From Akkermansia muciniphila ATCC BAA-835 (GTDB taxonomy: Bacteria > Verrucomicrobiota > Verrucomicrobiia > Verrucomicrobiales > Akkermansiaceae), in contig NC_010655.1 in NCBI RefSeq assembly GCF_000020225.1, forward strand, positions 2,010,001 to 2,042,000: 32,000 nucleotides of DNA. Reading direction: 5' to 3'. Below, piece after piece: positions 89 through 30,749 of this stretch. The notes beneath the pieces were generated by a model that was not told the DNA's origin, did no database searches, and worked only from the letters and a program-made list of their open reading frames with translations. Both the position numbers and the translations under genes were made by a program. Within the stretch, counting starts at the first letter, position 1; every line of letters begins with the position of its first letter.

Positions 89-180
89 GCGGATAATTTT
101 CTCCTATCAGGAGGGCAAATGGAAGAATCCGGGTTATTTATGATTGACAAAATCCTATTAGGATAATAATAGCTCTTTTA

Positions 181-210
181 TTGGACAATATTACATCTCA
201 TTAGGATAAT
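181..210 (+). promoter_or_regulatory. Putative sigma70-like promoter for the OMP gene (TTGGAC, 18 nt spacer, GATAAT)
   Basis: The hexamers sit at 181-186 and 205-210, about 40 nt upstream of ATG 250. The -10 element lies inside the second copy of the repeated 11-mer ATTAGGATAAT. Confidence 0.3.
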
Positions 211-249
211 TCTTTGTCCTCTCTAAGGAATCCAAAACCTAAAAACATC

Positions 250-873: not shown

Positions 874-894
874 CTTTCGGCGGTGAATTAACTG

Positions 895-934
895 GCCTCC
901 TTCCTTTCGGGGAAGGGGGCGATTCTTTGATTTG
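895..934 (+). terminator. Rho-independent terminator after the OMP gene
   Basis: GCCTCCTTCC-TTTCGG-GGAAGGGGGC forms a 10-bp stem with one G.U pair, followed by the T-rich GATTCTTTGATTTG. Confidence 0.6.
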
Positions 935-936
935 CA

Positions 937-1975: not shown

Positions 1976-7599
<5,624 letters not shown>

Positions 7600-14619: not shown

Positions 14620-15087
14620 GCCGGTTTCCTGAAAAATATCCGGAAGCAAGCAGTTTTGCGCCGCGAAACGATAGAAGCCGAATGTTGAACTCCTTTATTA
14701 TTTTAGCCTTTTTCCATCCTTGCCTGCAAGATTTTTTGTTTACCTGTTTCTTTCTATTTGTTTTTGATATGTTTAAAAAGCATTGTCCCATAAGAAAATA
14801 TGGGAAAAAACCGACTCCATTTTCATTCAGTGAAAAAGATGCGGTTTTCTATAAGCGGAGGATTCCGAAATGGTAAAACTGTGTGTTATGGATAAGGGAA
14901 AAAGAGTATTCCTGCCATGGAAATGTTTTTTCCCGTTTATGAATGAAACCGCTGCGCCGTCTTTCCCTTCATCCTTTTCAAGAGACCGGGCGGGGAGAAG
15001 AGCCCCAGCCGGATGTTTACCTGCAAGAGCGTGGGGCAGACAGATCCGGCCGGGTTGATGAGGAAAAACGCTTCCCTGAAGAAACTG

Positions 15088-16332: not shown

Positions 16333-16504
16333 GGGCAATAATGGATGAGAGAGTTGTGTTGCGCCCCCTTTCAACGGCGTTGGAGGCAGGGAATGAAATG
16401 ATAGTCAAACCTATCCGCAGCCCGGAGGGATGTCAAACATTATTGGTTTTCCGGATGGGGCTGCCGGGGCTGGAGAAAGTGGGGAAGAAAAAAGAGCAGG
16501 GGTG

Positions 16505-17416
16505 TCAGTTTTTTTGTCCCCAGAGCTTTTCCAATGCGGAGGCAAAGCGTTCTCCCAGGACTAGAACTCCATGCGTGCCCAGATGGACGGTATCCGTGGG
16601 ATAGGGGGTGCGGAAGTCCATGCTGCGCAGCTGGAGATCATCTGCGGGGACATAAACCGCATTGTTGACGGAGAGGGAGGTACGGGATTCTTCCGCCACA
16701 TCCTTTTGCCCCTGCCGCACTTTTTCCCTGCCCGGAAAACGGGCCAGAGCGGGCACGGGAAGAACGCTGCCGTAGATAAAGGCCAGACCGGGGGCTTCCA
16801 GATCCGCTCTGATGCGTTTAATCAGGTTGTTCAGGTTGGCGCCGTAAGACAGAGCGTTTTTGATGCCGGCAATGTCCCTTGCGTCTCCTTCCCCCTGTTG
16901 CCACACCATGGCTTTCAGGACAGGAGCATGTCCCTGCTTTTTCAGGGCTTCCATTCCGTTGCGGACGGTACGGAGCAATTTGACGTATTCTTCCCCCTGC
17001 TTATCCTGAGAAGTTTTTCCTGGGTTCCATTGCCGGAAAAGGTTGCTTCCGCTCCGGGCGTGCTTGATGATGGCCCATTTTTTTTGCGGGAATTTTTTCT
17101 GCAACGCTGTTCCCAGGCTTAGTTCCACGCCAAAACGGTCGGGGGATTCGGATGCCGGGCTCAAGGGAACAAGCTGTTCTGCCGGTTCTGTCCCTTTGAG
17201 GGAGCCGGAATAGTACAGAAGAATCCGTTTATCCGTTTTGAAGCAGGGAGGAATGTTGTTGACGTACCCTTGCCCTGTGGCGTTTGACTGTCCGCCGATA
17301 AGGATGACGTTGACTTCATCCGCATGCAGGGGTGGCGCCGGAAAGACCGTCAGGGAGCAAAGCAGCCATGAAAAGAGGAAAAAACGTGCAGAGCGTGGAA
17401 GTACGGAAACAATCAT
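16505..17416 (-). CDS. Sialate O-acetylesterase-like SGNH hydrolase (SASA/DUF303 type), secreted
   Basis: GGQSNATGQG carries the nucleophile Ser, and the C-terminal DTVHLG carries Asp/His. ATG 17416 gives the signal peptide MIVSVLPRSARFFLFSWLLCSLTVFPAPPLHA. An alternative ATG at 17551 overlaps the upstream stop (TAATG) but would place 45 residues ahead of the signal peptide. Confidence 0.85.
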   Translation of the reverse strand: MIVSVLPRSARFFLFSWLLCSLTVFPAPPLHADEVNVILIGGQSNATGQGYVNNIPPCFKTDKRILLYYSGSLKGTEPAEQLVPLSPASESPDRFGVELSLGTALQKKFPQKKWAIIKHARSGSNLFRQWNPGKTSQDKQGEEYVKLLRTVRNGMEALKKQGHAPVLKAMVWQQGEGDARDIAGIKNALSYGANLNNLIKRIRADLEAPGLAFIYGSVLPVPALARFPGREKVRQGQKDVAEESRTSLSVNNAVYVPADDLQLRSMDFRTPYPTDTVHLGTHGVLVLGERFASALEKLWGQKN

Positions 17417-17550
17417 GGCGGGGATATCCCTGATACGTTTCCCGAAAGAAGATTCTGTCTTCTGCAGGAATTCTTCTTTGCCTGCTGCCAGGATATTTGA
17501 CTGTTGATGTTTTCCTGTTCCCTTGATTCTTTCCTTTCCGGAAAAAGGCA

Positions 17551-18651
17551 TTATGCGGAAGGTGCGTGCAGGGAAACGGATTGGCCGGGGTATATTTCCG
17601 GAATGACGGAAATGCTCTTGATATTTTTTCCGGCTGTCAGGGAGCGGAGCATCCGTATGAGCTTGTGAACCGTTTTTGTCTGGTTCTCTTCATAATAGGT
17701 GATCGTGGGCAGCAGGCGTTCCATGAAGGGTTCATACGTCAGGCTGACCAGGCTGAGCTGATCCGGAATGCTCAGCGAACGGGCTTCCACCCAGGAAAGG
17801 ATGGGAACGATCTGGTTGCCCCGTGTGGCTACCAGGGCGGACATATCCGGATGTTCTTTAAACGCTTTGGCCAGGTATTCAAAGAAGAGAGGCGTTTCAA
17901 ACGGGGTGGGAACCAGGATGGGATTCCATCCCTGTTCCGCAAAGCTGAAAAAACCTTTTTGCATGAGCTGGTGGCCCTTCAACGGATCAGGAGGCAGGCA
18001 CAGGCCTACCGTTCGGTGCCCCTTGTTCCAAAGGTGCTGCGCCGCATGATGCGTGGTGGCCGCCCAGTGGCGGTCCAGATAGGGAAGGTTGCTGCTCTGG
18101 TAGGAGGTGCCGCGCACAATGCAGGGGATGCGGTGCGTCTTGAACCAGAGCTGGGTTTGCTCCGAGGAACGGTGAAGTATCCAGCAGACGCATTCGGATT
18201 TGGTAACAAGCTTGGCAAGCCTCTTGTCCGGGTTATTGCCTAAGATCCAGGGAGCTTCAAAGATACGGACGCTGATGCCGTCTTCCTCCAGAATTTTGGA
18301 GATGGTATATATCTCCGCCAATACGCTTTGAGCCAGCCTTTTGAGGGGCTGGGGCGTCAGAAATCCGAGAATTTCTTTTTTTTCCTGAACCGGATGGCAG
18401 AAGATATTTTTAACCGTTTCTTCTTCCGTAGTTTTCAGGATGCGCCTCGGAACCTTGATGCGTGGGGGGGCAATCCATGCATCCCTTTCCAGAAGGGTCA
18501 GGGCCTTTCTGATGGTTTCCCTGCCTACGGATAACCTGTGCCCGAGTTCTCTTTCTCCGGGCAGGATATTGACCAGGCTACCGCTGAGAATCATCTGTTT
18601 GATTTTATTGGCTACTGTTTCAACCAATGAAGAAGCTGGCAACGAAGTCAT
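17551..18651 (-). CDS. GntR-family transcriptional regulator, AraR-like (GntR wHTH plus LacI/PBP type-1 sugar-binding domain)
   Basis: The N-terminal GntR HTH is LPGERELGHRLSVGRETIRKALTLLERDAWI. The remaining ~300 aa have a LacI/GalR-type effector-domain layout. ATG 18651 (MTSLPASS) is preferred over TTG 18723. Confidence 0.85.
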   Translation of the reverse strand: MTSLPASSLVETVANKIKQMILSGSLVNILPGERELGHRLSVGRETIRKALTLLERDAWIAPPRIKVPRRILKTTEEETVKNIFCHPVQEKKEILGFLTPQPLKRLAQSVLAEIYTISKILEEDGISVRIFEAPWILGNNPDKRLAKLVTKSECVCWILHRSSEQTQLWFKTHRIPCIVRGTSYQSSNLPYLDRHWAATTHHAAQHLWNKGHRTVGLCLPPDPLKGHQLMQKGFFSFAEQGWNPILVPTPFETPLFFEYLAKAFKEHPDMSALVATRGNQIVPILSWVEARSLSIPDQLSLVSLTYEPFMERLLPTITYYEENQTKTVHKLIRMLRSLTAGKNIKSISVIPEIYPGQSVSLHAPSA

Positions 18652-19048
18652 ACTCTTGTATATACGTATCGCATTGCGTGAATTCGAGCCAATTGTAGGG
18701 ATTGCCTGCCCCGCAGAATCCAAAAGGAGAGCTGGTGTTGTTGCAAGTTGTTGATATTCTGTAAATCGTTTTAGGATTTAAGCTACTGGTCTTTTTTGAT
18801 GAGGTAAAGTGGGCGGATAATGTATAAATGATATGGTGTTATCAATGCATTACATTCCTGAGCGGTACGGCTGCAGGTGGTTTGTAATTATTTCTTAATT
18901 CATTTAAGATAAATATTTTATTGCGTATTTTGTTGGGCGGAGCCATTTCTTATTCTCCATTTTCTCACTTTCCCCCAATTTCCGCCAGGAAATGTGCACG
19001 TATCGGCATGGATGACTTTTCTCCCGTTTCCGGCACTAAATCTGCTTG

Positions 19049-19333
19049 ATGAAAGTGAATACCATACCGGGCGCATCCTATGCGCTGACTTGTACGGCTG
19101 CGTGTACTATCCATGCGCTTCTTAGCGACGCTTCTTCTCTGGTTATCCTGGAAACGGAAAACCCCGGACAATATTTTTTTATAGCTCCCACTGATACAAT
19201 AGAGGTATCAGACGAACACGCCCTGGTGACACAAACTTTTAAAGCAGCCGCTCCGGGATTGTCTGCCCGCAGCGGCATAAGGCCGGGAGTAAATGCTGAT
19301 TTAAAAAATCCGACGGTGGAAAAAGCGGTATGA
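19049..19333 (+). CDS. Hypothetical small protein (94 aa)
   Basis: An ATG-initiated ORF in an AT-rich intergenic patch, with no recognisable motif. Competing antisense ORFs (18965..19171, 19078..19338) look less protein-like. Coding status is uncertain. Confidence 0.35.
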   Translation: MKVNTIPGASYALTCTAACTIHALLSDASSLVILETENPGQYFFIAPTDTIEVSDEHALVTQTFKAAAPGLSARSGIRPGVNADLKNPTVEKAV

Positions 19334-19552
19334 ACCATTTCTTTTTTCTGATTGCCCGCGATTAAGCGCAGCGCTCATGAGCAATCCGGTCAAAAGGTTG
19401 TTTGTCCATGGTTTTTCGAACCTTTACGGGGAGCGGGACTTCACCGCCAGATCATTGTCTGACGCGGACTGGGTGCGGAAGTCCGTCTCATTCCTTCCTG
19501 AAATTACTACGGGGAAGTCTCTTTGAGAAATGAAGCGTTATCGACTGATAAT

Positions 19553-19589
19553 AGAAAACCCTGGGAGCGTTTAGCTCCCAGGGTTTATT
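19553..19589. terminator. Bidirectional rho-independent terminator
   Basis: A perfect 10-bp stem CCCTGGGAGC/GCTCCCAGGG (19559-19568 and 19574-19583) with loop GTTTA. It is flanked by AAAA on one side and TTTATT on the other, so a U-tract follows the stem on either strand. It sits immediately 3' of tRNA-Leu. Confidence 0.7.
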
Positions 19590-19592
19590 GAT

Positions 19593-19675
19593 TGGTACCG
19601 CCGGTGGGACTCGAACCCACACTCTTTTGGAACTCGATTTTGAGTCGAGCGCGTCTACCATTCCGCCACGACGGC
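19593..19675 (-). tRNA. tRNA-Leu (anticodon CAA), type II with long variable arm, CCA encoded
   Basis: The minus-strand sequence GCCGTCGTGGCGGAATGGTAGACGCGCTCGACTCAAAATCGAGTTCCAAAAGAGTGTGGGTTCGAGTCCCACCGGCGGTACCA folds by hand as follows. The acceptor stem is 7 bp with two G.U pairs. The anticodon stem is CTCGA/TCGAG with loop CTCAAAA. The T-arm is GTGGG-TTCGAGT-CCCAC. Confidence 0.9.
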
Positions 19676-19749
19676 ACGTGAAGCGAAAGAATTAAGAGGC
19701 AAGAGGGCTGGAGAGTCAAGAATTTCCTGTGGAATATGGTGAGCTGCTG

Positions 19750-19785
19750 AAAAAACGGAGGGATTTTCCTGCGGATTCCCTCCGT
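19750..19785 (-). terminator. Rho-independent terminator downstream of the integrase gene
   Basis: On the minus strand, a 9-bp stem ACGGAGGGA/TCCCTCCGT (19777-19785 pairing with 19755-19763) is followed by TTTTTT (complement of 19750-19755). It lies between the int stop (19859) and the tRNA 5' end. Confidence 0.6.
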
Positions 19786-19858
19786 CATGTTTCCGGATGG
19801 AAATAAGTGTTTGGAATGAGCAGTGCACGGCCGCGTTAACGCTTTTTTGCGTCTCTTC

Positions 19859-20890
19859 TCACGCCGCCAACTCCCAAAATGCTCGCACCTCGCATCCTCG
19901 AATCCCCTGCGTATGCACATAGCGCGTCTGCAACAGCGTCCCGTCCCGATGCCCCATCGCCGCCTGCAAACGCCCCCAATCGTGAAACATCTTCGCATGA
20001 TACGACGCAAAGGTATGCCGCAGGACGTCCTGACGCCATGTCTGAAAACCCGCTGCCGAGCGCAAAGCGCGCCACCGCCTGTTCCAATCTGGCGGACAGA
20101 TGAAAACCGACTCCCTCTCTGCCCCCTGCGGATAATAACTCCTCAACCATGCCAACACGGAGCGAGACAGCGGCACCTGCCGACCGCCGCCCGTCTTGCT
20201 CTGCCTCGGGCGAATCCGCACCTCCCCCTCCTCCCAATCCACATCGCCCCAGGTCAAACGCCGCACCTCATACGGACGAATCCCGCCGTAGAGCATCATC
20301 ACCACGCCCGCCGCACAGGGGGAAAACTCCTCCCTCTCTGCCGTCCGCAGCAGGCGGCGCACTTCCTCGATACGGAGGGGGACGATCTCCCGCTCCGTCA
20401 CGCGCGGCACATCCACCAGCCGCACGGGATTATGCGCACACCAGCCTTTCTTCCACGCCACCGTGAACACTCCCGAGAGAATCGCCCGCGCATGACGACG
20501 TTGCGAGGGTGAAAGAAAGACTTTCTCCAACACAGCCGCACAGTCCGCCGTCGTCATCGAGCGCATGGGACGCGCCGCCAGATCGGGCACATCTCGCATC
20601 ATCCTCTGCGTGAAGGAGCGGATATCGCGCAGGGTGAGCGCCGAACGGTCGGCCTTGACGCGCAGGGTTTCTGCCACGGCTTTGGAGAAGGAGACCGTTT
20701 GCGTGGCGAGATGCTCGGCTTCGCACCCCAAGGCGATGACGCGGCGGCAGTGAAGGAGCAGAGCTTCTTTCTTTCTTACGGAAGAGCCTCCGCTTCCTTC
20801 GACCAGCTCCAGCATGAGACGAGCAACATCGGTGAGGGAGAAGGGGAGAGAGGCGAGGAGGGCAAGGGCGGTGCTAGCGTCGGTGTTCAT
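19859..20890 (-). CDS. Tyrosine-type site-specific recombinase (phage-type integrase)
   Basis: Catalytic boxes GGIRPYEVRRLTWGDV (Arg I) and VLRHTFASY...AMGHRDGTLLQTRYVH (R, H, Y). The start is uncertain: ATG 20890 (MNTDAS) is favoured because 20891-20950 is AT-rich and promoter-like. Alternatives are ATG 20917 and 20950. Confidence 0.9.
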   Translation of the reverse strand: MNTDASTALALLASLPFSLTDVARLMLELVEGSGGSSVRKKEALLLHCRRVIALGCEAEHLATQTVSFSKAVAETLRVKADRSALTLRDIRSFTQRMMRDVPDLAARPMRSMTTADCAAVLEKVFLSPSQRRHARAILSGVFTVAWKKGWCAHNPVRLVDVPRVTEREIVPLRIEEVRRLLRTAEREEFSPCAAGVVMMLYGGIRPYEVRRLTWGDVDWEEGEVRIRPRQSKTGGGRQVPLSRSVLAWLRSYYPQGAERESVFICPPDWNRRWRALRSAAGFQTWRQDVLRHTFASYHAKMFHDWGRLQAAMGHRDGTLLQTRYVHTQGIRGCEVRAFWELAA

Positions 20891-20978
20891 GGCAACAGGA
20901 TAAATAATACTCTTCATCAAGCCCAAAATAACGAAACTTGTCAAAAACATGGAATGGAACGGTAGTTATGCCTGTATG

Positions 20979-21053
20979 ACAAGAAAAAAATGAGAAGAAT
21001 TTTCTTCCTTTTTTCTTGTTTCTTTGTCTGGCTCAATAATATAATATATTGAG
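20979..21053. promoter_or_regulatory. AT-rich divergent control region with two palindromes (candidate operators) between int and the methyltransferase gene
   Basis: An imperfect 41-bp palindrome spans 20979-21019: ACAAGAAAAAA ... TTTTTTCTTGT, with an inner GAAGAA-TT-TTCTTC. A second palindrome, CTCAATA-N8-TATTGAG, spans 21032-21053. A possible TTGTTT-18-TATAAT promoter lies at 21016-21045 on the plus strand. Confidence 0.3.
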
Positions 21054-21101
21054 AATCAAAACATTGAAGTTAAGAGCATTATTTATACTCTACTTCCCTC
21101 G

Positions 21102-23099
21102 ATGAAACATCGAGGGAATGAGGCTTCGGGAGAGACGCAACTCGATGCCTCCCTTGTGGCTATTCTCCTCGCCGACCGTTCGAGCGGCGCTTTCATCCGC
21201 TGGGCCTGCAACGCCTACACTACCCACGGCGAGTCCTATGCGGCGGATCAAGAGATCTACCCCCATCAGGTGCATCTGATTCAGGAGCGCACCCGCAAGA
21301 CGCAGGAAGAACAGCGCGACCGCACCAAAAAATCCGCCGAAGTCTTTACCCCTGCTTGGCTGTGCAACGCCATGATCAACGCCCGCGATGCCGTTTACTT
21401 CGGGCGGGAGGAGGTCTTTAACCGCATGGAGGCTCCATCGTGGACGCCGACGCGCAAGACGATTGACTTTCCGACGACAGCATCTGGCCGCCGTCTCGCG
21501 TGGGAGCGTTACATCGATGCCCGCTGTCTGGAAATCACCTGCGGCGAAGCCCCCTTTCTCGTCTCGCGCTACGATGCCGTCGATGGTCGCCCCATCTCCT
21601 TGGCAGAGCGCATCGGCATCCTCGACCGCAAGCTGCGTATCATCGGCGAGCATACCTGCACCGCAGAGGACTGGTTTCACTGGGCAAAACGCGCCCTCGA
21701 AAGCGCCTACGCTTACGAATACCAGGGCGACAGCCTCTTTCTCGCCCGTCTCAATCTTTTTCTGAGCATTAGCGAGTACCACCGTCACCTGTGGAAACGC
21801 CCCCTCAACCGACACCAACAAGAGGAAGTTGCCCGCATCCTCTCGTGGAATCTCTGGCAGATGGACGGCCTGACGGCGACGACTCCCTTTGCCACGGAAC
21901 AGGGGAAGCCCGAGGATTCCTTATTTGATTTTTACGCCATCACAGCCGAAAGGCGCCCCCTCCGTAGCCTCATCCGCGACTGGCGCGGCAAAAAAACGAT
22001 TCGATTCTCTGAACTCAACCTATCCACCACCATGAAATTTGATTTTGTCATCGGCAATCCGCCGTATCAGCTGGAAACCGCCAATAAATCCCTTTCCAAC
22101 GGACAATTGCCAAGTAAAAGCATTTTTCATCATTTTCAGCTGAGCGCGGATCAGATTTCCTCCGGTCTTACCGTCTTGATTTATCCTGGAGGGCGATGGA
22201 TTCAGCGTTCTGGAAAAGGAATGGCGGATTTCGGCTTACAACAAATCAATGACAGCCGTTTACAAACCTTGTATTATTACCCCGACAGTACCGATCTCTT
22301 CCCTGCACAAGTTGCCGAAATTGCGGACGGCATCTCCATTGTGGTCAAAAATGCCCACAAGACGACCCCAAGCTTCCGCTACTTCTATATGCGGCGCGGA
22401 GAAAAAACAGGTGTCGAGCTGGAGCCTCCCGGCGAAAATATCCTTCCTCTAGACCCACGCGACGGAGCCGTTGTCAGGAAAATCGAGGATTTTGTTCAAA
22501 GAAACAAGTTGCCTTATTTGAACGATAATGTGCACTCAAGAAATCTATTTGGAATTGAGAGTAATTTTGTCGAAAAAAATCGAGATCAGGTTCGCCTCTA
22601 TCAAGAAGGGGATGCGGTAGATTGCGAGACGGAGATCAAGCTATATGCTAATGACCGAGCCGGGAAAGCTGGCAGAACGACATGGTTTGTTGCACCAAGA
22701 AGCATTATTCAGACGAATGAGGCTTACATCTCCAAATGGAAGGTTGTTGTTTCCAGTGCAAACGCCGGGGGACAAAAGAGAGATTGGCAGTTGGAAATCA
22801 TCGACAATCAATCGGCATTCGGTCGTTCGAGGGTTGCTCTTTCTTCTTTTGAAACGAAGCAGGAAGCGGAGAATTTTTACCACTATGTGAAGAGCTATAT
22901 TATTCGCTATGCCTTCCTGATGACGGATGAAGCTCTGACAACTTTGGCGCTGAAAGTGCCGGATATGTCAGATTATACTTCTGACAACAAGTTAATCGAC
23001 TGGTCGCAGGATATTGATAGTCAGTTGCAGAAGCTCATGTCCCTCAGTGATGCTGAGTTTGAATACATCAAAAACACGGTGCAGAGTGTACGAGCCTAA
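21102..23099 (+). CDS. N6-adenine DNA methyltransferase, gamma-class (Eco57I/TaqI-like order X-I-IV-TRD) with C-terminal target-recognition region
   Basis: Motif X is AEVFTP (residues ~79-84) and the motif I-like segment is LEITCGEAPFL (~143-153). Motif IV is DFVIGNPPY, with NPPY at nt 22056-22067. The ~340-aa C-terminal half has TRD-like features (SSFETKQEAENFYHYVKSYIIRYAF). No nuclease domain is evident. Confidence 0.85.
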   Translation: MKHRGNEASGETQLDASLVAILLADRSSGAFIRWACNAYTTHGESYAADQEIYPHQVHLIQERTRKTQEEQRDRTKKSAEVFTPAWLCNAMINARDAVYFGREEVFNRMEAPSWTPTRKTIDFPTTASGRRLAWERYIDARCLEITCGEAPFLVSRYDAVDGRPISLAERIGILDRKLRIIGEHTCTAEDWFHWAKRALESAYAYEYQGDSLFLARLNLFLSISEYHRHLWKRPLNRHQQEEVARILSWNLWQMDGLTATTPFATEQGKPEDSLFDFYAITAERRPLRSLIRDWRGKKTIRFSELNLSTTMKFDFVIGNPPYQLETANKSLSNGQLPSKSIFHHFQLSADQISSGLTVLIYPGGRWIQRSGKGMADFGLQQINDSRLQTLYYYPDSTDLFPAQVAEIADGISIVVKNAHKTTPSFRYFYMRRGEKTGVELEPPGENILPLDPRDGAVVRKIEDFVQRNKLPYLNDNVHSRNLFGIESNFVEKNRDQVRLYQEGDAVDCETEIKLYANDRAGKAGRTTWFVAPRSIIQTNEAYISKWKVVVSSANAGGQKRDWQLEIIDNQSAFGRSRVALSSFETKQEAENFYHYVKSYIIRYAFLMTDEALTTLALKVPDMSDYTSDNKLIDWSQDIDSQLQKLMSLSDAEFEYIKNTVQSVRA

Positions 23100-23114
23100 A
23101 AGGAGAATCCATCC

Positions 23115-26100
23115 ATGAACACCATCAACATCCGAAGCACGAAGAAGGTTGAGCCGAAGTGTTACGCCTACACGACTCCAGAGGTGCAGCGGCACGAGGG
23201 CTGGACGAAGATTGGCTACACCGAGCAGGATGATGTCGAGGTGCGCATCCGCCAGCAGACGCAGACGGTGGATGTGCGCTATTGCCTGGAATGGCACGAG
23301 TCGGCGCGTTTTGCCGACGGGACGGTGTTTCACGATAAGGCGTTTCATCGTTACTTGGGCAAGAAGGAGGTGGAACGCGAGGGGAATTCGGAGTGGTTTC
23401 ATCTTGTGCCCGAGGTGGCGCATGGTCATTTTCGGGAGTTTACCCGCAATCGCGGGGTGTTGCAGACGCCGGGTGCGGTGCCTTATGTGTTGCGGGCGGA
23501 GCAGGCGGAGGCGGTCGAGCGGACGCGGCTCTATATGGCGAGCCACGCGGGGCAAAGCCCGGAGTTTTTGTGGAATGCCAAGCCGCGTTTCGGCAAGACT
23601 TTGGCGGCGTATGATTTGTGCAAGCAGATGGGTGCGCGGACGGTGTTGATTGTGACGAATCGTCCGGCGATTGCTCATTCGTGGTACGATGATTATGTGC
23701 GTTTTATGGGGACGGAGTCGGGGTATTATTTCATCAGTGGGGCGGATGCTCTGCGGGGCTTGCCCCATGTGCTGGAGCGCGCGCAGTTGCCGAGTGATGC
23801 CGAGGGGTATATCGAGTTTGTGTCTCTGCAGGATTTGAAGGGTTCTCTGTATTTCGGCGGGGAGTTCGATAAGTTGGAGCATGTGCAAAAGTTGACCTGG
23901 GATCTGCTGATTGTGGATGAGGCGCACGAGGGGGTGGATACGTACAGGGCGGATGTGGCGTTCGAGCAGATTGCGCGTCGGGCGACGCTGCATCTGTCGG
24001 GGACGCCTTTTAAGGCTTTGGCAAATGAAAAGTTCGAGGAGAAGGCGATTTTCAACTGGACCTATGCCGATGAACAGCGCGCCAAGAGGGAGTGGCAGGA
24101 GGAGGCGGAGGAGGAAAATCCCTATGCCGCCTTGCCGCAGTTGGACCTTTATACGTACCGGATGTCTGAGGTAGTGCGCGATCGCCTGAAGCAGGGGGCT
24201 GATTTTGACGATGACGGCGAAAATGAGGCCTATGCTTTTGACTTGAATGAGTTTTTTGCCACGAAGAGTGACGGTTCGTTTAAGTATGATGAGGCGGTGG
24301 AGAGGTTTTTGGAGGCTTTGGCAGGGCAGGAGAAGTTTCCCTTTTCGACGGAGGCTTTGCGCCGCGAGGTGAAGCATAGTTTCTGGCTGTTGGACCGCGT
24401 GGACAGTGCCAAGGCGTTGGCGAAGAAGTTGAAGGCGCATCCCGTCTTCCGCGAGTACGAGGTGGTGGTGGCGGCTGGCGATGGCAAGACGGATGCGGAG
24501 GAGGAGGCGACATCGACGCTCAAGTCCTTGGATAAGGTGCGCACGGCGATTCGCGCCCACGAGAGGACGATTACGCTTTCCGTCGGGCAGTTGACGACGG
24601 GGGTGACGGTGCCGGAGTGGACGGCGGTCTTGATGCTGAGCAATGTGAAGAGTCCGTCGCTGTATATGCAGGCGGCGTTCCGGGCGCAGAATCCCTGCCT
24701 GTTCGTGGAGGGGGACGAGTTGCGGCGCAAGGAGAATGCGTATGTGTTTGATTTTGAACCGGCGCGGACGCTGGTGATTTTTGAGCAGTTCGCCAATGAC
24801 CTGTGTTCGGCGACGGTGAGTGGCGGAGGCGATGGGGAGACGCGCAAAAGGCAGGTGCGCGAGTTGCTGAATTTTTTCCCCGTCTATGGGGAGGATGAGG
24901 AGGGGGAGATGGTGGCTCTGGATGCGGAGAAGGTGTTGTCCGTGCCGCGCAAGATTCATGCCGTCGAGGTGGTGCGCCGTGGGTTCATGAGCAATTTCCT
25001 GTTCCAGAATATCGGGAATATTTTCTCGGCGCCGCGTCAGGTGGCGGATATCCTCGGGCAACTGCCGACGGTGAAGGAGCAGAAGCCGTCCAAGGCGAAG
25101 GAGGGCGGTCAGGGAGAGGGCGGTTTGTTGGACGGCGCCGCGGATTTGCCCCTGAATGAAAAGGGTGAAGTGGTGTTGCCCTTGGATGAATTGACCCGTA
25201 AGACAGGGGAGCTTTTCGGGGATAAGATATACAGCGACAATGTTGTGACGCAAACGAAGATCGATGAGGTCTCGACGAGTAACGCGCCGGATAAGAAGGC
25301 CGCACAAAATTTAGTGACGATATTGGTGGATACTGTGGTGAACCCCACCCTGCAGGATGCCAAGACGCACTATGGCGATGAGATGAGTAGAGCGTCTGAA
25401 CATCGTCTCAAAAAGCAGTTGCAGAATCAGGCGACGGTCGCGGTCGGCAAGGCAGCGACGACGCACAAGAAGAATCGCCACGAGACGGAGAAGGCAAAGA
25501 AAAGGGCTCTCGACGAGGCGCATGCCAAGGGGCAGAGTGAGGCCGAGGTTCAGGCGATTCAGGATCGTTTTGATGCCGAGCAGAGGGAGAATGAGCGTCG
25601 GTATCGAGAGGAGTTGAAGGAGGCAGCGGCAGAGATTGAGAAGAAGGCCAAACAGGCTGTGGTGGATACGGTGGAAACCGAGAAGGTTACCAGGAAGAAG
25701 GAGGCGATTGAAGAGGATATTCGCGGTCATTTGCGTGGCTTTGCGCGGACGATCCCCGCCTTTTTGATGGCGTATGGCGACGAGAATACCTGTCTGGATA
25801 ATTTCGATACGATTCTTCCCGATGAGGTCTTTAGAGAGGTGACGGGGATTTCTTTAGAGCAGTTCCGCATCTTGCGCGATGGGTGCGATTACGAAGATGA
25901 GGGTGTCCGGAAGCATTTTGACGGTCATTGTTTTGATCCGATTGTTTTTGATGATGCCGTTCAGGAGTTCTTGGCGTTGAAGAAGAAATTAGGCAATTAT
26001 TTTGATGAGTCGCAGTCGGAGGATATTTTCGATTATATTCCGCCGCAAAAGACGAATCAGATTTTCACGCCCAAGCATCTTGTCATGAAGATGGTCGATA

Positions 26101-26447
26101 TGTTGGAGGAGGAGTCTCCGGGCTGTTTCGATGACCCCGACAAGACGTTTATCGACCTCTACATGAAGTCGGGTCTATATGTGGCGGAGATTGTCAAACG
26201 CCTTTTCCGCAGCGAGGCGATGAAGGCGCGTTTCCCGCAGGCGGAGGAGCGTTTACGGCATATTTTCGCGCATCAGGTGTATGGCTTGGCGCCGACGGAG
26301 ATTATTTACCGCATTGCCTGTGCCTTTGTCCTGGGCTTCGACGAGGAGCTGCGCATCGAGCGGCATCATCTCGCGCGCTTCGATGCCTTGCCGGCGGTCA
26401 AAGACGGCACGCTGGAGGAGGCTCTGGACAAGATTTGGGAGAGGTGA
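23115..26447 (+). CDS. Fusion protein: N-terminal GIY-YIG superfamily (T5orf172-like) domain, SF2 DEAH helicase/translocase, charged coiled-coil, C-terminal methyltransferase-like (motif X/I only) tail
   Basis: - AAGGAG RBS 8 nt upstream; the gene starts 15 nt after the methyltransferase stop.
- GIY-YIG-like pattern: CYAYT...WTKIGYT...VRIRQQ...FHDKAFHRYL...GNSEWF (residues ~15-100).
- Helicase motif I NAKPRFGKT, motif II LLIVDEAHEG, motif III HLSGTPF, motifs V/VI SVGQLTTGVTVPEW and QAAFRAQNP.
- Lys/Glu-rich helical stretch around nt 25450-25730.
- Tail from nt 26061: IFTPKHLVMKMVDML...FIDLYMKSGLYVAEI...QVYGLAPTEI, with no NPPY-type motif IV. Confidence 0.85.
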   Translation: MNTINIRSTKKVEPKCYAYTTPEVQRHEGWTKIGYTEQDDVEVRIRQQTQTVDVRYCLEWHESARFADGTVFHDKAFHRYLGKKEVEREGNSEWFHLVPEVAHGHFREFTRNRGVLQTPGAVPYVLRAEQAEAVERTRLYMASHAGQSPEFLWNAKPRFGKTLAAYDLCKQMGARTVLIVTNRPAIAHSWYDDYVRFMGTESGYYFISGADALRGLPHVLERAQLPSDAEGYIEFVSLQDLKGSLYFGGEFDKLEHVQKLTWDLLIVDEAHEGVDTYRADVAFEQIARRATLHLSGTPFKALANEKFEEKAIFNWTYADEQRAKREWQEEAEEENPYAALPQLDLYTYRMSEVVRDRLKQGADFDDDGENEAYAFDLNEFFATKSDGSFKYDEAVERFLEALAGQEKFPFSTEALRREVKHSFWLLDRVDSAKALAKKLKAHPVFREYEVVVAAGDGKTDAEEEATSTLKSLDKVRTAIRAHERTITLSVGQLTTGVTVPEWTAVLMLSNVKSPSLYMQAAFRAQNPCLFVEGDELRRKENAYVFDFEPARTLVIFEQFANDLCSATVSGGGDGETRKRQVRELLNFFPVYGEDEEGEMVALDAEKVLSVPRKIHAVEVVRRGFMSNFLFQNIGNIFSAPRQVADILGQLPTVKEQKPSKAKEGGQGEGGLLDGAADLPLNEKGEVVLPLDELTRKTGELFGDKIYSDNVVTQTKIDEVSTSNAPDKKAAQNLVTILVDTVVNPTLQDAKTHYGDEMSRASEHRLKKQLQNQATVAVGKAATTHKKNRHETEKAKKRALDEAHAKGQSEAEVQAIQDRFDAEQRENERRYREELKEAAAEIEKKAKQAVVDTVETEKVTRKKEAIEEDIRGHLRGFARTIPAFLMAYGDENTCLDNFDTILPDEVFREVTGISLEQFRILRDGCDYEDEGVRKHFDGHCFDPIVFDDAVQEFLALKKKLGNYFDESQSEDIFDYIPPQKTNQIFTPKHLVMKMVDMLEEESPGCFDDPDKTFIDLYMKSGLYVAEIVKRLFRSEAMKARFPQAEERLRHIFAHQVYGLAPTEIIYRIACAFVLGFDEELRIERHHLARFDALPAVKDGTLEEALDKIWER

Positions 26448-26579
26448 CCGTGATGACGGCCTGGCTTGGGAGGCTTCATGTCTTGCGCCGCTCCCGTTGA
26501 ATGAGTGGCGCGGCTTAATTTCCGGCATGTTTCTTTGTGTTTCATGTGCGCAAGCCGATGAAAATTCATGGTTGGCGTT

Positions 26580-27170
26580 TCAGCCTTTTTTCACGGTCAG
26601 GGGTAGTCCCGCCACCATGAAGTAGACTTCATCCGCGCTTTTGGCAAGGAGTTGGTTGGCAATGCCCAGCCCGTCGCAGTAGTGGCGCGTTTCCGCATCT
26701 GACTGGCTGATGCCCATGCCGGTTTCAGAAGAAACAAGCACCCATGGCACAGGGGATTGGCGGATGAGCTTTTTCAAAGCTTCTATTTCCTCAATCAGCG
26801 CTTCCTGGAACGGCTCGTAGTCCGTGGGGTCCTTCTGGGCGTACAGGGTATTGGAGGAGAGCAGGGTGACGCATTCCAGAATGACGCCGTCCACCTGGTC
26901 CAGCAAGCCGGATTCCCCGACGGCAGAAGCTACATGACGGGGACATTCCAGCGTGAGCCAGCTTTTAGGACGGCGTTCCTGGTGCTTGCGCACGCGGTAT
27001 TCCATGGAGCCGGCTCCGGGCCAGACTTCCGCCGTGGCGACGTACAGGATTTTTTTCCCGAATCCGGCGGCTATTTGTTCAGCGTATTGGCTTTTGCCGC
27101 TTCTGATGCCGCCCAGGACGAGCGTCATGCGTGCGGTATTGGCGTCAGTGTTTGGTGATGTAGCGTTCAT
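26580..27170 (-). CDS. cobU: Bifunctional adenosylcobinamide kinase / adenosylcobinamide-phosphate guanylyltransferase
   Basis: P-loop LVLGGIRSGKSQYAE, then HQERRPKSWLTLE, VLVSSETGMGI and a C-terminal MVAGLPLTVK. The start is ATG 27170 (26-nt overlap with cbiR) or ATG 27128. Confidence 0.9.
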   Translation of the reverse strand: MNATSPNTDANTARMTLVLGGIRSGKSQYAEQIAAGFGKKILYVATAEVWPGAGSMEYRVRKHQERRPKSWLTLECPRHVASAVGESGLLDQVDGVILECVTLLSSNTLYAQKDPTDYEPFQEALIEEIEALKKLIRQSPVPWVLVSSETGMGISQSDAETRHYCDGLGIANQLLAKSADEVYFMVAGLPLTVKKG

Positions 27171-27960
27171 GGGATTCCAGCATGGCCTGGTGGGAGTTCA
27201 GGAAGTCATCCAGGCTGAAGACTTCCAGCGTAATAAGGGGGGAGAAATGAAGGTCCCACATGGGGTGCAGAATGGCGTCCAGCGTAGCGGCAGGCATGTG
27301 GTGCAGGGATTTGTGGTCCCGTTTTTCCAGCCCGTGCAGGTGGCACATGCGTATGTCCGGCAGCCAGAGCGGCAGAAGTTTTTCCGGCCGCAGGCCTTCT
27401 TTCCAGACATGGCCTATGTCAAAGCAACGTGAATGGGGTGTAGCGGCTACCAGTTTATCCAGATAGTCGGTCGGATGGCGTTCCAAATTTTCCAGGGCCA
27501 GGCATTCCGGTGCGGGGAGGTGGGGCGTGATTTGTTCCAGACTCCGGAGGATTCGTTCCGTTTCGCGTTCCGTAAGATGGGGGCGCATATCAGGACCGGG
27601 GATATGGTCCGTGACCACATGCATGACCCAGGTGTGGGGCTCCAGTTCCCGTGTCAGGTCAATGGCGCGAATGATGTTTTCCGTATAACGGCGGCTTGAT
27701 TCTTCCGTGGCGAAGCTGCCGTCCGTAGGCAGGTGGACGTTCCAGGTAACCCCGGCATCTGCAGCGATTCCGGCCAGTTCCCGTATTTCCGCAGGGGTAA
27801 TGAGTTCCTTTCCGCATTCTCCGGCTTCCAGCAGGAGCAGAGCGACATCATCCGCGTAATGGACGCATTCCCTGATGGCGGGCACGTAGTAGTCCGGGAT
27901 GATGAAGGAGGTGCATCCGATGTTGAGGCCTGGAACGCGGCATTTGTGTGGAGTTTTCAT
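27145..27960 (-). CDS. cbiR: Xylose-isomerase-like TIM-barrel (AP endonuclease 2 superfamily) protein embedded in the cob operon; matches what is described as cobamide-remodelling phosphodiesterase CbiR
   Basis: The start ATG at 27960 overlaps the cobS stop (ATGA). Metal-ligand-like motifs typical of the fold are WNVHLP, ALENLE, FDIGHVW and CHLHGLE. The gene sits between cobS and cobU. The 105-codon N-terminal extension in the ORF track overlaps cobS and is an artefact. Confidence 0.8.
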   Translation of the reverse strand: MKTPHKCRVPGLNIGCTSFIIPDYYVPAIRECVHYADDVALLLLEAGECGKELITPAEIRELAGIAADAGVTWNVHLPTDGSFATEESSRRYTENIIRAIDLTRELEPHTWVMHVVTDHIPGPDMRPHLTERETERILRSLEQITPHLPAPECLALENLERHPTDYLDKLVAATPHSRCFDIGHVWKEGLRPEKLLPLWLPDIRMCHLHGLEKRDHKSLHHMPAATLDAILHPMWDLHFSPLITLEVFSLDDFLNSHQAMLESHERYITKH

Positions 27961-28697
27961 AAAGTGCAGAAGGTGAGCAGGACAAGCCATTCCGTACATT
28001 CCACGGTACAGCCGAATACATCCCCGGTAACGCCGCCCAGGCGGCGGCGCGCGTATAGAAGCAGGCCCATGGAGCCGGCCAGGGCGGAGAGCAGGGCGTA
28101 CAGCCCGTTCCATCCTGCCAGAGCGCAGGCAGCCAGGGTGACGGCTGCGGCAGCCAGGGCGTGCCCGGGGCGCGTTCCCTGCTTGAACGCTTCCCCCATG
28201 CCTCCATGCCGTGCGCCCGGAAAGCGCATGGCGATGAATATCTGGCTGCGGGCAAGCAATCCTGCCAGAGCGCACGCCGTGAGCAGAAGTTCCCAGGAGC
28301 CGTGGGCCGCCAGAGTCGCCAGGGCGGCTCCCTTGAACGCCAGGTTGAAAAACAGGGCCGTGCCGCCGAAGGTCCCCAGGCGGGAGTCTTTCATGATTTC
28401 CAGCCTGCGTTCCCGGGATACTTCAATGGGAAGCCCGTCTCCGCAGTCCGCTACTCCGTCCAGGTGCAGGCCGCCCGTGACGGCTACCCAGCAGGCACAG
28501 CCGATAACGCCGCAGACCAGGGGGGGGAAGAGCAGGGTTGTCGTCCAGGTCAGGCCGCCCGCAAGCCCCCCCACTACCAGGCCAACCAGCGGTAGCCAGG
28601 CGGAAATTCCGTTCAGGTCATTTTGCAGCGGCCACGGCCCTACGGGCAGCCGGGTCAGGAAGCCGAAGGCGGAGCGGATGGTGGTGATGACAGCCAT
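27957..28697 (-). CDS. cobS: Adenosylcobinamide-GDP ribazoletransferase (cobalamin 5'-phosphate synthase)
   Basis: The N-terminus is AFGFLTRLPV. The conserved segment HLDGVADCGDGL is present, and the protein is polytopic and hydrophobic throughout. Confidence 0.92.
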   Translation of the reverse strand: MAVITTIRSAFGFLTRLPVGPWPLQNDLNGISAWLPLVGLVVGGLAGGLTWTTTLLFPPLVCGVIGCACWVAVTGGLHLDGVADCGDGLPIEVSRERRLEIMKDSRLGTFGGTALFFNLAFKGAALATLAAHGSWELLLTACALAGLLARSQIFIAMRFPGARHGGMGEAFKQGTRPGHALAAAAVTLAACALAGWNGLYALLSALAGSMGLLLYARRRLGGVTGDVFGCTVECTEWLVLLTFCTL

Positions 28698-28716
28698 GGA
28701 TACAGGGAAGAAAGGG

Positions 28717-29757
28717 TCAGCGCGGAACGGTGATGTCCAGTTCCGGCAGGGTTTTCATTTCAGAAAGTACGCGCGTGGCGGCGTCCAGCAGGGGAAAGAA
28801 CAGGGCCGCTCCCGTGCCTTCCCCCAGGCAGAGGCCCAGGTCCATGTACATGGTGACGCCGATGTGGTCCATAATGAGCTTATGCCCCGGTTCCGCGGAG
28901 TTGTGGGAGCCGATGAAGTATTGCGCCGCTTCCGGGCGAATGCCCTGGGCGATGGCCGCGGCCGCCCCGGCAATGAAGCCGTCAATGACGATGGGAACGC
29001 GCAGGGAGGCCGCCCCCAGCATCAGTCCGGCCATGGCTCCTATTTCCGGTCCTCCCACCTTCGCCAGCACGTCAATGGCATCGGAAGGGTCTGGCTTGTT
29101 CAGGGCGATTCCCTGTTCGATGAGTTTTATTTTTTTGCGGATGACTTCTCCTCTGACGCCGGAACCGCGTCCCGTCACGGTTTCCACAGGGGTGCCCGTG
29201 AGCACGGCGACGATGGCGGAAGAGGGGGTGGTGTTGCCAATGCCCATTTCTCCGGCGGCCACAATGTCCAGCCCTTTGTTTTTTTCTTCACGGGCCATGT
29301 CAATGCCCACTTGCAGGCATTTCAGGGCCTGTTCCCGCGTCATGGCCGGCCCCCTGCTGAAGTCGTTGGCGCCGTGCATGACTTTTCTTTTGACCAGCCC
29401 CGGCAGGTCGCCGAAGTCGTAATTGACGCCTACGTCCACTACGGAAAGGCGTGCTCCCGCGTTGCGTGTAAAGGCGTTGATCGTGCCTCCGCCCTGAAGG
29501 AAGTTGCGGGTCTGGATGTAGGTAACGTCCGTGGATGTCAGGCTGAGGCCGTGGTCGGCGATGTGGTGGTCCGCGGCGAACAGGACTATGGCTTTGTCCT
29601 TCAGGCGCGGCGCGGGATTGCCGGTCATGCCGGCAATACGGATGGCCACGGGTTCCAGTTTTCCCAGGGCAAGGGGAGGCTTGGCCAGAATTTTCTGATG
29701 TTCCAGGGCCGCTTTTGCGGCCTGTTCGTCCAACGGGGGGATATGCAGTTTGTTCAT
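28717..29757 (-). CDS. cobT: Nicotinate-nucleotide--dimethylbenzimidazole phosphoribosyltransferase
   Basis: Motifs are LAKPPLALGKLE, FAADHHIADHG and AGEMGIGNTTPSSA. The start ATG 29757 overlaps the cbiB stop (ATGA). The longer ORF-track start at 30078 overlaps cbiB and is an artefact. Confidence 0.92.
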   Translation of the reverse strand: MNKLHIPPLDEQAAKAALEHQKILAKPPLALGKLEPVAIRIAGMTGNPAPRLKDKAIVLFAADHHIADHGLSLTSTDVTYIQTRNFLQGGGTINAFTRNAGARLSVVDVGVNYDFGDLPGLVKRKVMHGANDFSRGPAMTREQALKCLQVGIDMAREEKNKGLDIVAAGEMGIGNTTPSSAIVAVLTGTPVETVTGRGSGVRGEVIRKKIKLIEQGIALNKPDPSDAIDVLAKVGGPEIGAMAGLMLGAASLRVPIVIDGFIAGAAAAIAQGIRPEAAQYFIGSHNSAEPGHKLIMDHIGVTMYMDLGLCLGEGTGAALFFPLLDAATRVLSEMKTLPELDITVPR

Positions 29758-30746
29758 GATGTCCAGAAGTGGGGGGTGAAGAGAAGAAGGAGAGTGAACG
29801 CCAGCGTACCCGTGGCGGCAGTCGTCCACATGAGCCGAATGGCCAGGGCCAGGTCGCTGGCGGAGGCTTTGGTTCGCCCTGTTCCTATCCAGGGGTAGTT
29901 TGCAGGAATTCCCTTGTAAGAGACCGGGCCCCCGAGACGGAGGCCCAGCGCTCCAGCGAAGGCCGCTTCGCTCCATGCGGAATTGGGGCTGGCGTGGGCG
30001 TTCCGGAAGGCCCATCCCATGGTGAGCGCCCTCCGGGCGGAGGTTCCTTCCACCATCAGGGCGGAAAAGGAAATACACGGTAAAATAAGGCGTGCGGGGA
30101 TGAAGTTGAGCGCGTCATCCGTGCGTGCGGCAAAGGTGCCGAAGTGTCTGTACCGGTCATTTTTTTTCCCCCACATGGCATCCAGGATGTTGAAAACACG
30201 ATGCGCCAGCGCGGCGGAAGCCGCCCCGGAGGCACCTCCTGCCAGGCAGCCTGCTGAGGCCCAGAACAGGGTGGAAAAAACGCCATCCGTCAAGTTCTCC
30301 GCCACGCTTTCAATGGCCGCTCTGGCGATGCCGTAGACGTCCATCCGTTCCGTATCCCGTCCCACGATCATGGAGACGGAGTGCCGGGCCTCTCCGGCGT
30401 TCCCGCTGCGCAGGGCGTTTTCCACCTTCCGGGCATGCTCGGCCAGGCTGCGCGGGGCCATGCAGATGTAAATGACCAGAACGGACGGAATCCAGGGTGC
30501 CCAGGGGGAGGGTAACAGGGAAAAGGGAAGGAAGAGCGCCGCGCAGCCGAACCATGCGGCAATGCAGGTTGCCAGCGCGGCCGCCATTCCCGCATGAAAA
30601 GTTCCTCCCCACCTTTGCCTCGCCAGTGTTTCCATGCGGAGCGCGCACCGGCCGATCAGACAGACGGGATGAAACCTGTTGGGCGGTTCTCCCGCCAGAA
30701 TATCCAGCAGGAAGGCCGCAGGCAGGATGAACGGGCACGGGAACAT
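29754..30746 (-). CDS. cbiB: Adenosylcobinamide-phosphate synthase
   Basis: The N-terminus DILAGEPPNRFHPVCLIGR is typical of CbiB/CobD. This is a hydrophobic membrane protein, and its start lies 3 nt after the cobQ stop. Confidence 0.92.
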   Translation of the reverse strand: MFPCPFILPAAFLLDILAGEPPNRFHPVCLIGRCALRMETLARQRWGGTFHAGMAAALATCIAAWFGCAALFLPFSLLPSPWAPWIPSVLVIYICMAPRSLAEHARKVENALRSGNAGEARHSVSMIVGRDTERMDVYGIARAAIESVAENLTDGVFSTLFWASAGCLAGGASGAASAALAHRVFNILDAMWGKKNDRYRHFGTFAARTDDALNFIPARLILPCISFSALMVEGTSARRALTMGWAFRNAHASPNSAWSEAAFAGALGLRLGGPVSYKGIPANYPWIGTGRTKASASDLALAIRLMWTTAATGTLAFTLLLLFTPHFWTS

Positions 30747-30749
30747 GGG

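Follow-up and report, generated by a model that had tools for sequence, protein, structure and literature searches.

The methylase gene, the motor gene and their domains

The 32,000-nucleotide window analysed here (Akkermansia muciniphila ATCC BAA-835, contig NC_010655.1, positions 2,010,001 to 2,042,000) contains two adjacent genes, gene 1 and gene 2, whose products resemble a DNA adenine methylase and an ATP-dependent motor joined to a predicted nuclease (Table 1). As the initial annotation had proposed, the open reading frame (ORF) list and the gap sequence place the two genes in the same direction, 15 nt apart, with an AAGGAG ribosome-binding site ahead of gene 2; the gap reads aaggagaatccatcc. 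We found that several complete genomes, including CP174100.1, CP071807.1 and CP042830.1, match region 19800-26599 at 100% identity, and that near-identical proteins carry the source name Akkermansia muciniphila.

Gene 1 matched the Pfam Eco57I model over residues 206-400 (54.9 bits, cutoff 25.3), its sole significant Pfam match, while no MmeI_* Pfam domain was found in it at E<=0.1. Its motifs follow the gamma order, with FTP at residues 82-84, LEITCGEAPFL at 143-153 and NPPY at 319-322. In the REBASE-derived profiles of PADLOC, gene 1 appears as two adjoining methylase pieces (residues 12-303 and 309-661), which we refer to as its NA and CL halves. NA carries motif X (EVFTP, aa 80-84) and motif I (LEITCGEAPFL), followed by motifs II and III, and the NPPY codons of CL lie at 22056-22067. 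The family-wide conservation profile of CL reaches its minimum at aa 426-545 (22377-22736), the presumed core of the target recognition domain (TRD), and profile searches found no nuclease domain in gene 1. The Eco57I match, the motif order and the variable region after the catalytic lobe agree with the earlier description of gene 1 as a complete gamma-class N6-adenine methylase that has a TRD-like C-terminal half and no nuclease.

Gene 2 begins with a domain that barely exceeds the threshold of the Pfam T5orf172 model (residues 18-102, 20.9 bits, cutoff 20). When 10 diverse family members were searched, the T5orf172 profile matched eight (best E 1e-6) and MUG113 matched two. Across 40 sequences with identity down to 43%, residues Y17, Y19, K32, G34, T36, R44, H78, E93, W94 and F95 of this domain were invariant, and motif order suggests which Tyr, Arg and Glu may occupy the catalytic positions. 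An AlphaFold2 (AF2) model of residues 1-122 had a mean predicted local distance difference test score (pLDDT) of 87.8 and a predicted template modelling score (pTM) of 0.79. Compared with the predicted viral structures of BFVD, this model gave 41 matches at E<=1e-3, of which the top ones were T5 Orf172, MUG113 and BRO C-terminal domains, and which included two GIY-YIG-annotated endonucleases (E 7e-4). The T5orf172 family belongs to the Pfam GIY-YIG clan.

The superfamily 2 (SF2) motor that follows matched Pfam ResIII at residues 125-299. Its motifs GKT (K161, 23595-23597), DEAH (268-271), SGTP (295-298) and the motif VI QxxFR, contained in QAAFRAQNP (519-527), are invariant across 40 relatives. 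An AF2 model of gene 2, built on a 40-sequence alignment, showed a confident N-terminal alpha/beta domain and two RecA-like lobes, then a disordered linker (aa 655-709), long helices (aa 726-877) and a conserved helical module (aa 870-960). In Foldseek searches with the gene 2 model, the nearest structures were the Snf2-type double-stranded DNA translocases Ino80, Chd1 and SsoRad54 (E ~1e-6). Rank 4 was the Type ISP enzyme LlaBIII (4xqk; E 4e-6), collinear over 1152 columns, and so along nearly all of the protein, at a low TM-score, as would be expected of flexible multi-domain models.

The tail of gene 2, which we call NB, adopts a beta1-alpha-beta2-alpha-beta3 fold at residues 985-1108 (pLDDT 87-90) and contains a motif X (QIFTPK) and a motif I-like DLYMKSG. 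Because the tail stops where motif IV should begin, NB is half a methylase fold, an N-lobe with motifs X, I, II and III, and not a whole methylase. The makeup first suggested for gene 2 therefore stands for its T5orf172 domain, SF2 DEAH motor and coiled coil, but AF2 and the motifs reduce the supposed methylase-like tail to an N-lobe. Of the Pfam families anticipated for the pair, T5orf172, ResIII and Eco57I were recovered.

Table 1. Coordinates of the features discussed, in window positions
Feature	Position	Strand	Description and basis
Gene 1	21102-23099	+	665 aa, ATG start; ORF list
NA half of gene 1	21102-22016	+	aa 1-305; S-adenosylmethionine-binding N-lobe; PADLOC MTase_II PDLC03390, 260 bits, residues 12-303
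CL half of gene 1	22017-23099	+	aa 306-665; NPPY catalytic lobe and target-recognition region; Pfam Eco57I, PADLOC PDLC03375
Exchanged cassette	22071-23114	+	codon after NPPYQ to last base before gene 2 ATG; allele comparison
Ribosome-binding site of gene 2	23100-23105	+	AAGGAG, 9 nt 5' of ATG
Gene 2	23115-26447	+	1110 aa, ATG start; ORF list
T5orf172 domain, predicted nuclease	23142-23459	+	gene 2 aa 10-115; Pfam; invariant columns; AF2 domain model; BFVD matches
SF2 helicase-like motor	23487-25064	+	gene 2 aa 125-650; Pfam ResIII; invariant motifs; Foldseek
Long charged helices, coiled-coil arm or coupler	25290-25745	+	gene 2 aa 726-877; AF2 secondary structure; conservation
NB tail, second methylase N-lobe	26037-26447	+	gene 2 aa 975-1110; AF2; Pfam Eco57I across NB and CL in fused relatives
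Invertible segment (inverton), 187 bp	20900-21086		15-bp inverted repeats ATAAATAATACTCTT (20900-20914) and AAGAGCATTATTTAT (21072-21086)
Tyrosine recombinase	19859-20890	-	343 aa from ATG at 20890; Pfam Phage_integrase 2.2e-20
tRNA-Leu(CAA), left neighbour	19593-19675	-	ARAGORN; Rfam tRNA 59.3 bits

Family spread, module arrangements and allele variation

Relatives of gene 2 form more than 8000 clusters at 90% identity and, in an exhaustive search at E<=1e-30, 778 clusters at 50% identity; when one genome per species was scanned, at least 585 species carried one. Identity to gene 2 is 54-61% across Alphaproteobacteria, Melainabacteria, Clostridia (including Faecalibacterium prausnitzii ATCC 27768 and Ruminococcus albus 8), Collinsella, Bifidobacterium, Bacteroidota, Spirochaetes, Kiritimatiellae, Opitutales and one Methanocorpusculum archaeon. 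This pattern is the signature of intense horizontal transfer, mostly between gut organisms. Since full-length relatives nearly always align from residues 2-16 of gene 2, the T5orf172 N-terminus is a constant of the family. Members were found on plasmids, on elements resembling integrative and conjugative elements (ICE-like elements) and in at least one phage genome, and the neighbourhoods in other taxa include Hachiman, PIN and MNT/HEPN cassettes, relaxases, resolvases and resistance plasmids. A Methanocorpusculum sp. metagenome-assembled genome holds a complete three-gene copy at 55% identity (L083, 4022-9318), and the gut phage NatCom_35866 holds a distant split relative at 33% identity (L098, 6010-10466).

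We divided the window proteins into six modules (NA, CL, T5, HEL, MID and NB) and mapped these in 88 loci. The order NA, CL, T5-HEL-MID-NB was nearly universal, and ~80 loci, which span many phyla and include one archaeon, kept the gene order. About half of the mapped loci resemble the window in having NA and CL fused; the others encode them as separate genes (~320 aa and ~345 aa), with the cut exactly between motifs III and IV. In Bacilli and elsewhere, CL is fused directly after NB at the end of the helicase protein. For example, residues 1-1108 of gene 2 align to residues 1-1099 of a 1445-aa Enterococcus faecium plasmid protein at 45% identity, residues 311-663 of gene 1 align to residues 1104-1444 of the same protein, and the N-terminal half of gene 1 aligns weakly to a small ORF upstream of the fusion. 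In such fusions, the Pfam Eco57I model matches in full (profile 1-171) across the boundary of NB and CL, so the two together are a genuine methylase domain. The NA gene is missing from at least one fused locus.

Altogether, four layouts were seen: NA-CL + T5-Hel-NB (the window), NA + CL + T5-Hel-NB, NA + T5-Hel-NB-CL, and T5-Hel-NB-CL alone. Single-chain relatives are 1430-1560 aa long, and the family thus includes true single-chain enzymes with the layout nuclease-motor-coupler-methylase-TRD. As comparative sequence evidence, the fusions argue strongly that the products of gene 1 and gene 2 physically cooperate. The orphan N-lobe is kept in most loci, not all, and either NA or NB can be the covalent partner of CL. 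We rejected the idea that NA and NB are recent duplicates, as hhalign aligned only their motif X region (22 columns, probability 27%).

Several loci depart from these layouts. In an Anaerococcus sp., two near-identical tandem CL genes that differ mainly near the C-terminus occupy the gap between NA and the helicase gene (L052, 4961-5998 and 6096-7136), and these could represent a specificity-module duplication or an assembly artefact. Several Clostridia carry small cassettes between NA and CL (L075 3336-4101, L081 1489-2278, L030 3434-4680, L035 and L057), consisting of nucleotidyltransferase/HEPN-like pairs and XRE-type helix-turn-helix genes, with a DUF559-like ORF in L078. Brotaphodocola catenula has an additional stand-alone T5orf172/GIY-YIG-like ORF of 228 aa between CL and the helicase gene, where the fused domain is also present (L070, 5303-5986), and the helicase protein of L099 (2239-6384; P0361), which accompanies a normal NA-CL gene, has a ~280-aa extension after NB with no Pfam match. 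On E. faecium plasmid pAT02-a, the fused form lies ~1 kb from the oxazolidinone/phenicol resistance gene optrA (L001, 3375-5342 and 6262-11338), and could help stabilise or protect plasmids of this kind.

Comparison of Akkermansia alleles revealed an exchange confined to the second part of gene 1. When the window was set against P0139, the commonest allele with 3615 indexed blocks, DNA identity was 98-99% over 14001-22070 and 23115-32000, and nucleotide similarity was nil over 22071-23114 (L089, 9970-10967). At the protein level, gene 1 is ~99% identical to the common allele up to NPPYQ and ~29% identical beyond it, and the breakpoints fall at the conserved NPPY codons and the gene 2 start codon. 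The window CL is 55-65% identical to CLs joined to NA halves of merely 43-50% identity, and the cassette has a guanine-plus-cytosine (GC) content of 45.8% vs ~56%. Because it is closer to foreign CLs and lower in GC, the window CL is an imported cassette.

Gene 2 is disrupted in some strains, either by the nonsense mutation Q360* (CAG to TAG) or by a 1-bp deletion 8 nt away. These knock-outs lie in L096 (~5950), L095 and L097, corresponding to window positions ~24185-24195; L096 and L097 retain an intact methylase gene, whereas that of L095 is split as well. Two independent gene 2 knock-outs beside an intact methylase are as expected for a costly restriction subunit. Both this repeated loss of the motor-nuclease and the swapping of specificity are classic traits of restriction systems. 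In L108 (CP072050.1, 5619-5639), one of the complete genomes, a 1-bp indel splits gene 1 into ORFs of 303 aa and 355 aa near the NA/CL junction; the indel may be genuine or a sequencing error.

An invertible segment and the surroundings of the locus

The invertible segment sits between the divergent recombinase start and gene 1. In a metagenomic Akkermansia contig (L005, 5150-5340), its interior is inverted while the flanks are identical, and a polymorphic repeat base moves along with the inversion. Overall, seven other loci have the segment in the window-like orientation and one has it inverted. Inverted repeats, both orientations in natural sequences and an adjoining recombinase are the features of an inverton, and all three were present. 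A perfect TATAAT (21040-21045) faces gene 1 in the window orientation, and a consensus promoter scan of the segment found no full promoter. In the simplest reading, the segment would be a phase-variable promoter that is inverted by the tyrosine recombinase beside it; a former role as an integrase is a candidate history for this recombinase. In the window orientation the recombinase ORF reaches 20950, inside the segment, and its NCBIfam matches are weak and Xer-like. We discarded the recombinase as a conserved component of the system, as it is absent from almost all loci outside Akkermansia.

The recombinase, gene 1 and gene 2 lie between tRNA-Leu and cobU in every Akkermansia contig inspected, with the gene pair region on the 5' side of the tRNA and not the 3' side. 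A search of 18700-27300 for attachment-site-like direct or inverted repeats gave nothing convincing, and look-ups of an empty integration site from the CobU and GntR flanks gave island-bearing contigs only. The GC content of the region equals that of its flanks, the CL cassette excepted. The initial annotation took the integrase and tRNA as the mark of a defence island. Both elements are indeed present, but the case is weak: no attachment repeats were found, the locus occurs in every Akkermansia contig examined, and the recombinase abuts the invertible segment and does not recur elsewhere.

The wider flanks code for GH2/GH20 glycosidases, a sialate esterase and cobalamin genes. At the low-GC (42%) left end of the window (1-2000), an IS1595-family transposase (972-1946, minus strand) adjoins an outer membrane protein beta-barrel gene directly before a GH2 gene (ORF start 1980), and this insertion may have disrupted or displaced neighbouring sequence. 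A 771-aa antisense ORF lies within gene 2 (22992-25307, minus strand), in a stretch of strongly positive GC skew (0.27-0.30); it most likely reflects the purine richness of the coding strand and is not a gene.

Proposed restriction mechanism, alternatives and known systems

We consider it likely that the gene pair encodes a heteromeric ATP-dependent restriction-modification (R-M) enzyme of the Type ISP or Type I-III functional kind. The family is most likely an uncharacterised and extremely widespread Type ISP-like R-M group whose nuclease is T5orf172 and whose methylase is split and permuted. Judging by domain identity, gene 1 (NA-CL) would be the adenine methylase that marks host DNA, with the NPPY loop and target recognition region of CL setting specificity. 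Gene 2 would supply a double-stranded DNA translocase motor, the T5orf172 nuclease and a docking module, in which the coiled coil and NB may tie the motor-nuclease to the methylase and its TRD, an association suggested by the fusions in relatives. By analogy with Type ISP enzymes, unmethylated target sites would trigger ATP hydrolysis and translocation, and the T5orf172 domain would nick or cut the DNA away from the site, possibly on collision. Replacement of the CL cassette would change specificity, and the two orientations of the upstream segment suggest that expression in A. muciniphila is probably phase-variable.

Several lines of evidence argue for this R-M system. The catalytic motifs are intact and are invariant in relatives 43-89% identical (R44/H78/E93; GKT, DEAH, motifs III and VI; NPPY), and nuclease activity has a precedent in ICP1 Odn, a purified T5orf172-domain protein that cuts DNA and whose conserved Glu is essential, the E180A mutant being inactive (PMC8263062). 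Modules that are separate in one locus are fused in another (Rosetta-stone linkage), within a conserved gene order. In addition, the gene 2 model is collinear with LlaBIII and its motor resembles Snf2-type translocases, CL behaves as a specificity cassette whose middle is hypervariable family-wide, gene 2 has been knocked out independently while the methylase stayed intact, and relatives elsewhere have defence or mobile neighbours.

On the other hand, a number of points weigh against the pair being an R-M enzyme. Neither sequence nor profile searches found a solved-structure relative of gene 1 or gene 2. The full-length gene 2 model is of moderate confidence (pLDDT 69, pTM 0.39). When the T5orf172-domain model was compared with the PDB by Foldseek, the best E was 0.65 and no GIY-YIG entry (I-TevI, UvrC, Eco29kI and others) was matched, and many annotations label T5orf172 a DNA-binding domain. 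As solved structures gave no confirmation of a canonical GIY-YIG fold, we claim only T5orf172 membership; the N-terminus, first described as GIY-YIG/T5orf172-like, is T5orf172-like by profile and predicted structure. A simple model also leaves two N-lobes (NA and NB) for one catalytic lobe unexplained. The Bacillus subtilis DnmA-YeeB-YeeC system gave no protection against phage or transformation (PMC9973331), and the motifs reported for an A. muciniphila probiotic strain, RAATTY and AACN6TAC, include no obvious short asymmetric motif, for a strain that may or may not carry or express the locus (PMC11741434).

The two N-lobes could be accommodated if CL were a shared, exchangeable half-enzyme that completes a Rossmann fold with NA to form the modification methylase and with NB to form the restriction complex. 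One cassette would then reprogramme modification and restriction together, and the choice of partner would set the balance between them. This arrangement would explain why CL is found free, NA-fused or NB-fused while both N-lobes are kept, and we offer it only tentatively, as a rather doubtful refinement. To our knowledge, sharing of a subunit by splitting a fold is undescribed for any R-M type.

Some of the same observations would also suit a mainly epigenetic or relic function, in which gene 1 is a phase-variable regulatory methylase (a phasevarion) and gene 2 is inactive or weak, as proposed for DnmA-YeeB-YeeC. The invertible segment precedes the operon, gene 2 was independently inactivated in some strains with an intact methylase, the locus appears fixed in the species and not patchy, and the B. 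subtilis analogue lacks a defence phenotype (PMC9973331). However, both the window and its 100%-identical complete genomes encode a full-length gene 2 with all catalytic motifs intact, and 54-61% identity across phyla in an 1100-aa protein implies strong purifying selection on the whole motor-nuclease. Exchange of specificity cassettes, seen in both regulation and defence, is commoner in defence, and we regard the epigenetic or relic function as unlikely.

Quite improbable, in our estimate, is a defence or other DNA transaction without cutting, whether the T5orf172 domain binds or senses DNA while the motor blocks or remodels foreign DNA in a BREX-like manner, or the pair serves mobile elements through anti-restriction or transfer processing. 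The wide annotation of T5orf172 as DNA-binding, the lack of a solved-nuclease match, a motor nearest to Snf2 remodellers and members on plasmids, ICE-like elements and a phage genome speak for it, but the catalytic-type Arg and Glu are invariant, and a T5orf172 nuclease has been proven (PMC8263062). Strict pairing with a methylase that has a hypervariable TRD is moreover a signature of self/non-self marking, and PADLOC matched no BREX, DISARM or other defence profile. The pair could also be cargo of a small tRNA-targeting integrative island, with the recombinase as integrase and the inversion incidental, since a tyrosine recombinase and tRNA-Leu adjoin horizontally transferred cargo and other members lie in integrative or conjugative elements. 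Yet the locus has no flanking direct repeats and is situated 5' of the tRNA, look-ups from either flank gave no empty site, GC matches the flanks save for the CL cassette, and the recombinase start abuts a segment that is bounded by inverted repeats and found in both orientations, all of which make the island very unlikely.

If the R-M system is active, hundreds of gut species, among them A. muciniphila, F. prausnitzii, Collinsella aerofaciens and R. albus, would carry a major class of ATP-dependent restriction enzyme that has so far gone unrecognised. The family also occurs in Listeria and on Enterococcus plasmids beside optrA, and its current annotation says only "Eco57I methylase" and "DEAD/DEAH helicase". 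In practice, an active system would make Akkermansia and other next-generation probiotics harder to manipulate genetically, and it would help to determine how phages and plasmids move in the gut. The family is also a natural experiment in modular enzyme evolution, with a fixed break point in the methylase fold and one lobe that changes partners, and this mobility could be used for specificity engineering.

A literature search found no paper naming or characterising the gene 1/2 family, and a GBS "novel RM" paper considered as a precedent proved unrelated. The epigenetic phase variation published for Akkermansia involves a Type I shufflon at a different locus (PMC11741434). In PADLOC 2.0, the pair matched R-M methylase profiles and, weakly, a IIG profile on the helicase part of gene 2 (47.7 bits), with no signature match to BREX, DISARM or other named defence systems.

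Among classical systems, Type III (Mod/Res) and Type I (HsdMSR) enzymes likewise have a separate methylase and ATP-dependent helicase-nuclease, ResIII matches the motor, and specificity is exchangeable as in Type I hsdS. The pair differs in lacking both a PD-(D/E)xK nuclease and a separate two-TRD HsdS. The NCBIfam HsdR score was 14.6 bits vs a cutoff of 729, and no HsdS-like ORF was found among the window ORFs. Type III Mod methylases are beta-class, whereas the motif order of gene 1 (X, I, then IV) is gamma. Type IIG and Eco57I-family enzymes share the Eco57I Pfam methylase, and PADLOC profiles call both halves of gene 1 Type II methylases, but here no PD-(D/E)xK nuclease is fused and an ATP motor is present.

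The DnmA (YeeA)-YeeB-YeeC cluster is similarly a single operon, which joins an SF2 helicase and T5orf172 domain to a nuclease-free adenine methylase that has its own TRD. Morgan et al. proposed in 2009 that YeeA/B/C, with methylase, helicase and GIY-YIG/T5orf172, is an ATP-dependent R-M system (PMC2731913), and Vibrio homologues of the B. subtilis system reportedly protect against some phages (cited in PMC9973331). The combination of helicase, methylase and GIY-YIG/T5orf172 therefore has a precedent. Unlike the MmeI-like methylase of the DnmA cluster, gene 1 lacks MmeI-family Pfam domains. Further differences are that the T5orf172 domain here is N-terminal and fused to the helicase, that a coiled coil and half-methylase tail are added, and that the methylase of the gene 1/2 family is split or permuted. 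We treat DnmA-YeeB-YeeC as an analogue and not the same family, set apart by its MmeI-like methylase and its architecture.

The closest likeness is to the Type ISP enzymes LlaGI and LlaBIII, which share the order nuclease, SF2 motor, coupler, gamma N6-adenine methylase and TRD, in a single chain in the fused relatives, and with which the gene 2 model is collinear (4xqk, at low TM-score). LlaGI and LlaBIII are near-identical enzymes that differ in the specificity part (PMC3553950), just as the two A. muciniphila alleles differ in that part only. In contrast to Type ISP, however, the nuclease here is T5orf172 and not Mrr-type PD-(D/E)xK, the window system is encoded by two genes instead of one polypeptide, the NPPY and TRD lobe sits on a second N-lobe (NA) while the motor protein retains the orphan NB, and a long coiled coil takes the place of a compact coupler. 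Sequence homology to LlaGI or LlaBIII was likewise absent at E<=0.1 (phmmer and family profile against PDB sequences). The initial suggestion of a split Type ISP-like or Mod/Res-like system with its nuclease swapped for GIY-YIG holds up in silico for a nuclease of the GIY-YIG superfamily, on the strength of the single-chain relatives, the LlaBIII collinearity, the specificity cassette and the defence-island and mobile neighbourhoods elsewhere, but the N-terminal domain has no significant match to a solved GIY-YIG structure, and the concept has a precedent in YeeA/B/C. Type ISP is the closest working model, with membership failing on nuclease type, sequence homology and, for the window, the single chain; the Type ISP authors themselves foresaw relatives with helicase subunits and GIY-YIG nucleases (PMC3553950).

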